Source: Paecilomyces variotii
Lineage: Eukaryota
DNA: 64,000 nucleotides
NCBI GenBank assembly: GCA_004022145.1
Contig: RCNU01000005.1
Direction: 5' to 3' (one strand)
Under the pieces are notes generated by a model. That model ran no database searches, had not been told where the DNA came from, and worked only from the letters and a program-made list of their open reading frames with translations. Position numbers and translations under genes: made by a program. Shown here piece after piece: positions 10,926 to 37,385 of the stretch. Each line of letters begins with the position of its first letter. Positions within the stretch are counted from its first letter, which is position 1.

Positions 10926-13606
10926 ATGAGGTCGTTCTCTCCCTTGAAGGGCCCTGTTGGAGCACTTGGCGCTGTACTTCTCGCTCTCTTTGCGGACGCG
11001 GAAGACGCTTATACTGGGTCTTTTGATGTCTTGGATTTCGTTGATCCTCTTATCGGGACAGCAAATGGAGGTTAGTGTTTTAGCACAAGATGTAACCGGA
11101 TATAGCTAAAACTGGATAGGACATGTATTCCCTGGCGCAACACTGCCTTTTGGTGAGTGGTCACTACTGTCCTCAACCAAGTATCTTTTACTGAGAATGA
11201 ATAAGGCATGGCCAAGGCAGTTGCAGATACTGTTGGAGAGAACCAGGCAGGCTTTGCATACGATACGAGCATTGTAACTGGCTTCTCTCACATGCATGAT
11301 TCGGGCACGGGTGGTGTGAGTAGCTTCCTTTCGAAGCATTGTAATACACTACTTCATTCATAAATATCTGATTATTCTTAGTCACCTTCTATGGGAAACT
11401 TTCCCATTTTCCCCCAACTAGCATGCCCGGGGGATGACCTCAACAATTGTGAATGGACAAGTCCAGCCAGAGGGGTCCAATGGGTTAAAGATTCTCCTAG
11501 AGCTCGGCCCGGCTCGTTCAATATCTCTCTGGAGAACGGGATCCATGCTGAAATGACGGTTTCCAATCATTCTGCTCTATACAGGTTCACCTTTCCAGCC
11601 AGTAACACCTCTTTCGCTCCCCTCTCCAACGGAACTGCGTCTGCTACGGGTCCTGTCATTCTTGTTGACCTCATTGATCTGCCACGGTCTCGCTCAAAGG
11701 CCCAGGCGTCTGTTGATCCTTCCACCGGGCGACTGACCGGAAATGGTACCTTCAACCCCAGTTTTGGGATAGGAAGCTATAACATGTATTTCTGTGTTGA
11801 TTTCAAGGGTGCTGAAATCCGAGATACTGGGGTATTCATTAACGATAACAGTAGTACGGACACCAAGACTGTCTCTGTAGGTGCAGCCTATACTACAGCA
11901 GGCGCATTTGTACAGTTCTTTGCTCCCGCAGATAATGTGATTGCAGCCCGCGCTGGTGTCAGCTTTATCAGTGTCGAGAAAGCCTGCGCCAACTCTGAGA
12001 ACGAGATTCCAGACTATGATTTCGACGATCTTGTTTCTAGTGCTGAAACTGCATGGAGGCAGAAGCTAGAAGTCATCAGTGTTGACGCTGCAGGCGTCTC
12101 AACAGATCTGCAAGAAACCTTCTGGAGCGGCGCGTATAGATCGATGATTAGCCCACAGGACTACACAGGAGAGAATCCACTTTGGGAAAGTGACGAACCT
12201 TACTATGACAGTTACTACTGGTTAGTTACCTTCCACTAGTAGCCATCCCATATCGACGACTAACAGGTGAACTACAGCATATGGGACTCATTTCGCAGTA
12301 TTCATCCACTCTTAACCCTCCTCGACCCTTTATCTCAGTCACGCATGATCCGCAGTCTAATCGACATATACCGTCATGTAGGGTATTTGCCCGACTGTCG
12401 AATGTCACTCTGCAAGGGGTACACTCAAGGTGGTTCGAATGCAGATGTTGTTATTGCGGACGCTTTCTTAAAGAAGGTAGCTGATATCGACTGGACCACT
12501 GCATATGAGGCAGTTGTGAAAGATGCAGAAGTTGAGCCACCCAATTGGGACGTCGAAGGACGCGGAGGTCTTCAGAGCTGGAAAACTCTCGGATATATCC
12601 CGACTGATGACATTGACCTCCTCGGGACTGGCACCCACACTCGCAGTATCTCACGGACAGTAGAGTATGCATACAATGATTTCTGTATAGCGGAGATGGC
12701 TTCTCGCATGGGTCATCCGGATGACTACACGAAGTATACGCAGCGTTCATCCAACTGGCGCAACATGTTCAAGGCGAACCAGACATCGTCGATCAATGGC
12801 ATCAGTACCAATTTCACGGGCTTCTTGCAGCCTCGCTATCCGAATGGGACTTGGGGGTTCCAGGACCCCATCTTCTGCAGCCCATTGCTTGATTTTACCT
12901 CGTGCTATCTGAATCCGCAAGGCCATGAGACGTACGAAGGCAGTTGCTGGTTATACACCTTGTGAGTACATATGTCTAAGGCGATCACCAAAGGAGTGAA
13001 AGATTCTAACCTCTCTGAAACAGTTACGTCCCACAAGATATGGCATCACTTATTTCCACACTAGGGGGTCGAGATGAATTTCTTTCTCGGTTATCTTTCC
13101 TCCACGACTCCGGCCTGCTCTACGTCGGCGACGAGCAATCCTTTCTCACCGTCTATCAGTTCCACTACGCTGGTCGACCTGGATTATCCGCTAAACAGGC
13201 ACATGCGTATATTCCCTCGTTATTCAACACATCTGTATCTGGTATCCCTGGAAACGATGACAGCGGTGCCATGGGTTCCTTCGTCGTGCTGAGCATGTTG
13301 GGCCTCTGGCCAGTTCCCGGACAAGACGTATACCTCATCAACCCTCCGTTCTTCAAGGAAATCAGCATCAAAAATAGCGCCACCGGAAAGGTTGCTACGG
13401 TTCGAAACGTCAACTTCGATCCCAACTACGAAGCTATTTACATCCAAAGCGTCAAAAGGGATGGTAAACAATGGACGAAGAACTGGATATCACATGACTT
13501 CTTCCTTGAAGGGGGACTGCTGGAGATTGAGCTGGGACGAAAGGAAAGCTCTTGGGGCACGCATGTTGAGGATCTGCCACCGAGCATGTCTCCATATCAA
13601 TTCTGA
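10926..13606 (+). CDS. Secreted alpha-1,2-mannosidase, glycoside hydrolase family 92
   Basis: Signal-like N-terminus; motifs FVDPLIGT, GHVFPGATLPFGMAKA, GFSHMHDSGTGG, WDSFRS, TQGGSNAD, SRTVEYAYND and PGNDDSGAMGS; 5 GT-AG introns. Confidence 0.95.
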
Positions 13607-34283: not shown

Positions 34284-35128
34284 GTCCATATGGCTCATGG
34301 ACGTTAGTATTATATATATACGTACGGTGTCTTAGACGGGACAAGAAGGAAAGCGTTTATAGATGATGGATCCGATGACTAGGTGGGACTTGTATATATT
34401 TTTATCGTAGGGAATAGATCAACAGAGCCAATAGCGAATCATTCCCATCATGCTAACTCCCGAGATGATAGGACGGGATTATCGTACAAGACCTGCTCGA
34501 GTCTCGACCGGATCGATGTTTATACCGTAATGTAATATCTACAGACGCTACAGCGCACGGGTCAAACATAAAAGGACATTTACGAGATCGATATCGATAG
34601 AAGGCATGAGAGGAAAATAAAAATTCTTGAGTGTCAATTTCAAATACAGAGACGTGAGCGCAAATATGAGTACAGAGGAGCGTCATGGTGCCGTCTCGTT
34701 CCGGGCGGAGAGATACGGTGCCACTCAATCAAAAGTCTACCACACGCTGGAAACGAAAAGCGTCGCTGCGTCCAGGCATGTTCTCATGGACCAATAGCCA
34801 ATGGGTCAAGAGCTCTGCAGGACACAGCGGAAAAATGAAGAGAAGAATCAAGAAGGAAAAATGGAAAAATTAAAAAACATGAGTAATCACAGACGCAAAA
34901 GCGCACAACAAAAGAATCATGCTGCTTCGTCATCATACACGAAATGGACAGTCAGCCTACCCCCCGCCTATCCTTCACGTCATTTTTCTCTGAGATCGGA
35001 GATAGTTCCCATACCCGAGTCTGTCATGTCGCCGCATCCTTCGTTGCAGGCATCACCTCGTCTGCTGTCCCGATCACCAGTCCACACTCAGTATAAACTG
35101 GATCTGATGTGGATTCAGCGAAACGTGT

Positions 35129-36572
35129 TTACGCAACCAGAGGCTCTGGCTTGAGCTCAGACTCGGTCGGCACAGCGGACACCGGAGACTCGACGTGCTG
35201 GCCGACAGGCTCCTCCTTGGGCGCCTCGGGGAAATCCGTCTGCTGGACCGTGGACTCGGGGATGGGCTCGGCCTTGACGAGAGCCGGGGCGGGGGCCACC
35301 TTGCTGACTTCGGGGGAGACAGAACGGCGGTTTCCAATGTACTCTTGTGCCTTGGAGCTGTAGGTACCCGCATACTGCTTCACCAAGCCGGTAGCGTGAG
35401 CAGTCTGCTGGCCAGCGATGTCCTTGACCTGGTTGGCCTGAGAGTGGATGACCTTCTGAGCATTCTCAATGTAACCATCGATGATCTCGCGGTTGCTGAT
35501 GTAGATGAGAGGGCCCAGGTAGGCGACAGTCACGCCGATCAAAGACAGGCCCCAGAGAGGAAGGATCTTGATAAGCCAGTAGGAGAAGAATGCAGCGGTG
35601 AAGGCCTGTAGGTCCGTCAGATTCATTGTCTTCATATTTTCTCAACAATAATATGGAGCGTACCGCAACAGTGTGGATGATGTTCTCAACGAACAGAATG
35701 CGCTGGAACTCAATGAGGAAGAAGTCCACGAGCTGTTCGAGATCCTCCAGAACTCCCTCAATCGCCTCCTTAGGGACAGTGTAGTACTTCCGGGGACGGA
35801 AAGAACTGGCGAGTCCTTGGGAGAGGACCAGCTTTCCAGCAAGCTCAAGCGCAGCGGTAACTAGGGGTGGAATCAGTATGCGGGAGGCACCAAAGGACAA
35901 CAGGCAAACTCACATCCCAGAGCCACGTAGAGGAACTTGAATGCCCAGCGAAGAAGGGGGAGGTATCGAGCAGCGAAGATGAAAGTCACAACGCTGGCAA
36001 AGGACACAGCAGTCGCGCGAGGGTGCTCCCACTATATTGGTTGTTATCAGCGCAGGCTCAAATGTCGACAGAAAGCCGGGCAACTCACGCTCAGGAGACT
36101 GTACAGCAACGAGTGGTAGGCTGAAGGCTCGTTAGTATCTCGCCTACTGGAATCGATGGATGCTGCTGCACATACGCGTCAAGGGCTGGCCGGTAGCGGT
36201 GGTGGTCGAAGACTCCACCTTGGAGCTCTTCAGGCCGCGAAAGTCATCTCCGGTGCGGTTGGCTTCGGACTTGATGTTCTGCACAACGGGGCCTATCGCA
36301 GGACTGGTCAGCCAGATTGTTCGAGCCTTCTCGAGATGATCTCATCATTTCCGTACCATCCAAGACCGTATCCTTGACGTCTGTAAGTGGGAGGAAGGTC
36401 AGTCCCCTGGATTTCCAGTATAAACGTTAAGGAGGACAAATGAAGAATACTGTGGAAGAGGAAGAGTGTCAGCGACCAGTTCAGTCAAACTAGATTCAAA
36501 CGATTTCCAACGAACCTCACTTGTTCCATTGGTGACGGGGTAGTGGACGTCACCGGCGTTGGTGGAAGCCAT
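35129..36572 (-). CDS. rtnA: Reticulon-like ER-shaping protein (Rtn1/Cwl1 family)
   Basis: Spliced product MASTNAGDVHYPVTNGT-NVKDTVLDG-PVVQNIK...YHSLLYSLLSWEHPRATAVSF...FFLIEFQRILFVEN...AFFSYWLIKILPLWGLSLI...PLIY has two long hydrophobic hairpins. Confidence 0.92.
36381..36520 (-). other. [D5,6] spliceosomal twin intron (stwintron) in reticulon intron 1
   Basis: GTGAG|GTTCGT...GCTGAC...CACAG|T ATTC...ACTGAC...TTACAG. Excising the 66-nt internal intron (36515-36450) rebuilds a canonical GTGAGT donor for a 74-nt external intron. Confidence 0.85.
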
Positions 36573-37385
36573 TAGGGCGGTTTGTTGTGGGTGCAACAGC
36601 TCTGACAGGGCTCGTGCAGCGCAAATAGGGGTTTCAATTGAGAGTTGTAGCAACACAGAGAGTGTAGCTCAGTGTGAGAAATAAAGATAGTCAACCGTGA
36701 GATTGTGGCCGTAGGGGACGATGATGGAGGGAAGAGCAGGAGAAAAAGGCGATGGGCGGTCGGGACAAGTTTGGTGTTTTGGGGTGTGATGCAATCCTAG
36801 CGAGAGGGTCGTGTGCTTTCCTGTCCTCCTTAGAGCCTCCACTAACTCTCTAGCCACAGCCACCACCGTCAAGACCTAGACCAAGACCAGAATCGATCAG
36901 GATTCTAATCACCGCTGTGCCCAGATTTCCGCTGATCAGGTCTGATCTGATCTGTTGTTTCTAGAACCTATGGTATTATTATGGATTATTACCGCTTGAT
37001 TGTCAGTTATCCCCCCTCTTTCTGCCCGAAACACCAGGCAGATAATATTCATCATCTCTGCGACAAAGTGCGTCTGAGCTCGGCTGATCTCATTGGAACC
37101 CACTGCGATCGAATTACCGGACAGACAGCCGCTCAGATGCATTTCCATGTGATGGAAGCGCTGAACCGCTGATGCGTTCTCGAGACAGTATTCCAAGTAC
37201 GTGGTCTGCACAACCTGGGCAGAAACAATACAGACTCTTTTTCAAGTGATGACGTTTTGTTTCTCTCTATCTAGCGCTACAGATGCAGGGCCATTTTCAG
37301 CACCCAGGAACAGCTCTCACATTCGTCTCCCAATCGTGGTGGGTCTTTTGCTAATGCAGCTGAAAATACATACTTAGTGGAGAGC

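Follow-up and report, generated by a model that had tools for sequence, protein, structure and literature searches.

A probable Paecilomyces variotii orthologue of the rtnA [D5,6] stwintron, with nested splice signals conserved in orthologous loci

The closest described counterpart of the structure considered here is the [D5,6] stwintron of the Aspergillus nidulans reticulon-like gene rtnA (AN5404), which, according to the main text of Kavalecz et al. (2019, Sci Rep 9:9940; PMC6616335), occupies the first intervening position, in phase 1, of a gene with seven exons and consists of units of 75 and 76 nt. The same account places it in 754 Pezizomycotina orthologues and in almost all sequenced Pezizomycotina, with the internal intron being lost in <3% of species, which instead carry a standard intron at the same position. 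A cDNA of the intermediate lacking the internal intron alone was obtained from A. nidulans, and with experimental confirmation in A. niger, B. cinerea, T. reesei, N. crassa and H. solani and an EST in Tuber, splicing intermediates (cDNA or EST) are reported there for A. nidulans, five further species and Tuber. Other features described in that text include an exon II of 24 nt in Penicillia and in all but the black Aspergilli, an additional [D5,6] stwintron that some classes possess at the second intron position, and exon-II skipping via a 3'-extended secondary stwintron in A. niger and N. crassa. The published screen used the motif GTRWGGTRWGH(25,120)DYTRAY(4,24)HAGH(25,120)DYTRAY(4,24)HAG, with each unit at least 42 nt long and DYTRAY lying 25-120 nt after the donor and 4-24 nt before HAG. 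In contrast, the [D1,2] stwintrons known from Hypoxylaceae and other fungi (PMC9024468, PMC8469720) are split between bases 1 and 2 of the donor rather than between bases 5 and 6; many of these are young, repeated sister elements, whereas the stwintron described below is an ancient, single-locus one.

The window, i.e. the whole 64-kb stretch of DNA analyzed here, is derived from Paecilomyces variotii, which the NCBI taxonomy places in the family Thermoascaceae of the order Eurotiales. Its minus strand contains a reticulon-like gene with seven exons, supported by six RNA joints (Table 1). The last exon boundary (35664/35605) can be moved by one base without affecting the product, and the seven joined exons encode a protein of 338 aa that is identical to the database protein P0001, a hypothetical protein of Paecilomyces variotii in NCBI and reticulon-like in UniRef. 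The Pfam Reticulon model (PF02453) scores 27.2 and 24.5 bits on two of the exon translations, below the gathering cut-off of 31.8 because these are fragments, and in the same Pfam search of exon translations it was not found on the third piece. It is present in 97/97 full-length homologues among the matches listed, the best of which is identical over the query. The gene is the Paecilomyces variotii-type orthologue of rtnA and encodes a reticulon-like ER membrane protein. Comparison of the homologous proteins also reveals that P0003 (P. lecythidis) and P0030 and P0061 (two Thermoascus species) are without the eight residues encoded by exon II (...NGTS|PVVQ..., alignment columns about 155-190), while these residues are kept in the proteins of P. 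variotii and P. variotii No. 5; the missing residues could reflect exon skipping, intronisation or an annotation choice.

Table 1. Features of the reticulon-like gene and its first intervening sequence (positions are those of the window)
Feature	Position	Strand	Evidence
All seven exons	36572-36521, 36380-36357, 36292-36176, 36120-36089, 36031-35914, 35860-35664, 35605-35129	-	six RNA joints
Exon 1, coding part, 52 nt; ATG 36572-36570	36521..36572	-	sequence; X9 contig covers 36521-36702; translation = P0001
First five bases (GTGAG) of the split external donor	36516..36520	-	sequence; RNA joint begins at 36520
Internal intron, 66 nt	36450..36515	-	sequence; homologous 54-71 nt units in orthologue loci
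Internal signals: donor GTTCGT, branch GCTGAC, acceptor CAG	36515-36510, 36473-36468, 36452-36450	-	sequence
T, sixth base of the external donor (GTGAG|T) after internal removal	36449	-	sequence; CAG|TATT block conserved with L030
External intron remainder; branch ACTGAC 36403-36398, acceptor CAG 36383-36381	36381..36448	-	sequence; RNA joint ends at 36381; GACTGACCTT block conserved with L030
Exon II, 24 nt, codes ..VKDTVLD..	36357..36380	-	RNA contigs X9 and X10
Intron 2, 64 nt, donor GTACGG (G at +6), acceptor TAG	36293..36356	-	RNA joint in X9 and X10; sequence
Exons 3-7 and introns 3-6 (55, 57, 53, 58 nt), to the stop codon	35129..36292	-	RNA joints; PF02453

Given that the coding part of exon 1 amounts to 52 nt, the intervening sequence that follows it (36520-36381, minus strand) is in phase 1. 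The exon ends in ...AAT GGA ACA A at 36521 and is followed by an internal unit of 66 nt nested in an external unit of 74 nt (5+69), which together account for 140 nt. Counted by eye, the internal donor is separated from GCTGAC by 36 nt, with a further 15 nt to its CAG, and the corresponding spacings of the external unit are 45 nt to ACTGAC and 14 nt to the CAG, which lies in the context TTACAG ending at 36381. The five other introns of the gene measure 64, 55, 57, 53 and 58 nt, such that the first is more than double the length of each; thus, its 140 nt correspond to approximately two intron units (66+74). Removal of the internal unit alone yields ...NGTSEYSSFVLLNVYTGNPGD followed by TGA, a stop inside ACTGAC (...NPGD*; read by hand). 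Removal of all 140 nt yields ...NGTNVKDTVLDG, which a script translates into the N-terminus of P0001 (...NGT N VKDTVLD G...). The sequence-only reading had proposed exactly this arrangement: upon re-reading of the sequence all its coordinates and lengths proved correct on the minus strand, the premature TGA that it expected on removing only the internal intron is indeed present, and the frame is restored to N-V-K-D-T-V-L-D-G when both introns are out. A search of 36200-36700 recovered no Rfam match at E up to 1, and the 140 nt fold no better than shuffled sequences (z = +1.35); thus, an embedded RNA gene or special structure was rejected as the source of the length of this region.

Of the 24 runs listed, four (X9, X10, X3 and X2) were examined over 35000-36800, all of them as assembled contigs, in which rare forms are lost. 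One contig with six joints was found in X9, which is a transcriptomic library, and one in X10; the joints skip 58, 53, 57, 55, 64 and 140 nt and are all GT..AG on the minus strand. The longest of these is the mature joint 36380|36521, found in one contig of each run, which was one of the two junctions that the sequence-only reading had named as a check, and it establishes that the 140 nt are completely removed from the mRNA. The contigs of the four runs contain, over the same interval, no intermediate joint 36516|36449 and no joint of exon 1 to exon 3; as contigs drop rare forms, the missing intermediate joint neither supports nor weakens a two-step model. X2 and X3, both labelled metatranscriptomic, showed solely unspliced contigs across the gene (13.2 kb long in X2), which are uninformative on splicing and probably represent carried-over DNA, or possibly the material from which the assembly was made. 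X10 also contains a separate contig of 2194 nt, at a depth of about 500, which starts at 36601 and extends upstream past 36800; it may come from a neighbouring transcript or indicate that the 5' leader is longer.

Within the external unit, a proximal CAG (36409-36407), which a scan with a compact pattern (see below) picked as the external acceptor, was rejected: the RNA joint is at 36381, and the branch candidate of this CAG is just 16 nt from the donor, outside the spacing rules given in the main text of PMC6616335. This CAG (36407-36409, minus strand) and an associated TTAAC branch-like element (36431-36427) are unused, and their use would shift the frame.

Comparison with the main text of PMC6616335 shows that the published rtnA and the gene in the window have in common: 1) the gene family, with seven exons and six intervening sequences; 2) the first position and phase 1 of the stwintron; 3) insertion between bases 5 and 6 of the external donor, with each unit having its own branch and acceptor; 4) an exon II of 24 nt, as in Penicillia and in Aspergilli other than the black ones; 5) absence of the whole unit from the mRNA. 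The juxtaposition GTGAG|GT... at the 5' end and CAG|T at the internal acceptor, which would restore GTGAGT, fits GTRWG directly before the internal donor and H after the internal acceptor, and both units fall within the published limits for length, branch and spacing. They differ from their A. nidulans equivalents in size (66+74 nt as against 75+76 nt), and the internal donor GTTCGT lies outside the published screen motif. The donor-disrupted stwintron in an Aspergillus reticulon-like gene to which the sequence-only reading referred thus corresponds to rtnA, and its judgement that the locus is probably a conserved instance rather than a new class agrees with the gene, the position, the phase, the number of exons and the length of exon II, all of which are shared. 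The main text of PMC6616335 makes no mention of Paecilomyces, Byssochlamys or Thermoascaceae, though its supplementary tables may list the species, and our literature search found nothing on stwintrons in Paecilomyces or Byssochlamys.

The strict published motif has 0 matches in the window, with GTTCGT departing from GTRWGH at +3 (T) and +4 (C); when the internal donor is relaxed to GTNNGN, the motif matches 36520-36381. The strict form likewise matches just 3/80 of the orthologue loci described below, and internal donors of the form GTACGT or GTACGC occur in many orthologues. Failure to conform to GTRWGH is therefore the rule and not the exception, and we rejected the strict motif as a criterion of membership, as most orthologues fail it too: it is a screening device and not a definition. 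Elsewhere in the window, a [D5,6]-like motif at 12203-12066 on the minus strand (GTAAG|GTTCGT, units of 77 and 61 nt) was rejected as a chance match, lying antisense to a plus-strand ORF (11382-12239), and further motif matches are seen at 57688-57561, 8034-7764 and 36769-36924 (plus strand), their number being in line with chance.

Conservation was examined by aligning 31 full-length homologues and using this alignment to scan metagenome contigs, which gave 447 pattern matches and 258 relatives, with 80 loci being retained. These were sorted by hand, based on the structure of the protein match and the upstream frames, into 47 cDNA-like and 33 genomic-type loci, with the latter being reduced to 26 upon removal of identical upstream sequences. 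In each locus the region from 600 nt upstream of the first protein match to 100 nt inside it was scanned with a compact pattern: GTNNG|GTNNNN, two units of 42-90 nt, each having YTRAY at a distance of 3-30 nt from the HAG that follows, and an H next to the internal acceptor on its 3' side. Candidates were found in 17/26 dereplicated genomic-type loci, as opposed to 0/26 of the reverse complements of the same regions, 40/5200 Markov-1 resamples and 3/188 other 700-nt tiles of the same loci. None of the 47 cDNA-like loci has a nested donor upstream. Thus, the nested signals are conserved in the orthologous introns, as the sequence-only reading had anticipated. In 14 of the 17 candidates the internal acceptor is followed by T, and among their internal donors GTACGT, from which GTTCGT of the window differs by one base, and GTACGC are common.

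Nine of the 26 loci are without a compact candidate, and seven of these nine have nested donors with longer spacings: in L031, L036, L039 and L040 the nested donor is GTAAG|GTAYGT and the internal intron is long, reaching 194 nt in L040, and the other three are L034, L051 and L079. The remaining two are L073, which has no nested donor, and L077, for which just 147 nt of upstream sequence is present. The closest genomic relative, L030, contains units of 67 and 73 nt, again giving 140 nt, and has an exon II of 24 nt as well as an intron 2; the CAG|TATT junction and the external branch block GACTGACCTT are conserved between it and the window, while most of the surrounding intron has diverged. Two loci, L058 (30-145 and 218-322) and L078 (2022-2148 and 2221-2332), possess a pair of successive [D5,6]-type candidates ahead of the conserved coding region, which fits the additional stwintron that the main text of PMC6616335 describes at the second intron position of some classes. 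In L055 (about 277-324), a cDNA-like contig, a 48-nt segment GTGAGA...TTGCAG is kept directly before the conserved GPVAQ exon; either intron 2 has been retained here or the segment is the external half of a stwintron in second position, both being possibilities only.

One environmental contig of 1692 nt, L013, has the form ...AACAGTAAG|TAACC...TTTTCAG|ATGCC... (L013:1-200), while its relatives L031 (48-400) and L040 (2126-2500) read ...AACAGTAAG|GTACGT...CACAG|TGATTCC...TTTCCAG|ATGCC.... Over its first 102 nt L013 is 98% identical to these genomic relatives, and its protein is ~48% identical to the product of the gene in the window. The internal intron is exactly missing from L013 and the external intron is kept, such that a GTAAGT donor is restored (GTAAG|T). 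It is also without the downstream 57-nt GT..AG intron carried by L031, L036, L039 and L040, which argues that L013 derives from processed RNA. L013 thus looks like the intermediate molecule predicted by the two-step model, captured in a different fungus, and as such it is an independent observation of that intermediate at the level of an assembly, though it may conceivably represent a genome which lost both introns at the DNA level.

In light of the above, we propose, with a probability of about 0.85, that 36520-36381 is the conserved rtnA [D5,6] stwintron and is removed by inside-out, two-step U2 splicing as published. In such a scheme, the 66-nt internal U2 intron (36515-36450) would first be excised via GTTCGT, the A of GCTGAC and its CAG; the joining of GTGAG to T36449 would then create the consensus donor GTGAGT; and a second U2 reaction would remove the 74-nt external intron via the A of ACTGAC and the CAG at 36381, finally joining ...ACAA to ACGTC... 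in frame. The predicted intermediate RNA would read ...ACAAGTGAG|TATTCTTC..., i.e. ACAAGTGAG joined to TATTC.... Orthology, conservation of the nested signals and the single intermediate-like contig L013 suggest that this order is probably the main route in P. variotii.

The alternative that survives best, which we nevertheless consider unlikely, is that the 140 nt constitute one long intron spliced in a single step from GTGAGG (36520), via ACTGAC, to CAG 36381, with the nested signals being relics or coincidences. The mature joint alone is compatible with one step or with two, the unsplit outer donor GTGAGG is off consensus at +6 alone, and G at +6 is tolerated in the same gene, where intron 2 is spliced from GTACGG, which makes one-step use of GTGAGG biochemically plausible. 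However, intron definition would pair GTGAGG first with the proximal branch and CAG 36450, a choice that would bring a premature stop into the product (ATA TTC TTC ATT TGT CCT CCT TAA; hand-read). The internal donor is itself off consensus and fails the strict motif, and <3% of species in PMC6616335, as summarized in its main text, are without an internal intron and have a standard intron instead; against this, the internal signals in the window are all intact and correctly spaced, and GTTCGT is a single base removed from the internal donor seen in several orthologue loci. Likewise, the T after the internal acceptor is the base found in most of the compact orthologue candidates, the CAG|TATT block is shared with L030 while most of the intron around it has diverged, and the 140 nt are more than twice the length of every other intron of the gene.

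It is quite unlikely, though conceivable, that the stwintron is partway to becoming an ordinary intron, with a drifted GTTCGT and an outer donor GTGAGG of the type with G at +6 that is spliced in intron 2 of the gene, in which case part or most of the transcripts could be spliced in one step; or else that the two donors compete and give rise to a non-productive, stop-containing isoform which might tune RtnA output. A chance motif unrelated to splicing is hardly credible: the compact pattern occurs once on the plus strand and three times on the minus strand of the window, compared to 1.86 per strand in Markov-1 resamples of 64 kb, and there are three other matches in the window, one of them antisense to a plus-strand ORF, but at this site the pattern coincides exactly with the stretch that is missing from the RNA contigs, recurs at the homologous site of 17 of the 26 orthologue loci and in none of their reverse complements, and is the structure published in the main text of PMC6616335. 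The exact RNA-defined interval, the double length and the conservation at the orthologous site therefore place the rtnA case above chance.

The window also shares with the exon-skipping layout described for A. niger and N. crassa in the main text of PMC6616335 the succession of a stwintron, an exon II that is short and in frame, and intron 2. One possibility, based on analogy with the N. crassa scheme, is that use of the internal donor with the external acceptor at 36381 might yield GTGAG|A, upon which exon II could be skipped in frame (...NGTS PVVQ...).

The structure, gene, position and phylogenetic spread of this stwintron were already published in 2019, and the copy in the window is a local orthologue, real but ordinary. 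Nevertheless, it shows that such a stwintron can be recognized by a reader from the raw sequence alone, while a screen with the strict published motif would overlook it on account of its internal donor GTTCGT. The locus could also be used as a positive control when nested introns are to be detected by annotation and RNA-seq pipelines for the Eurotiales.
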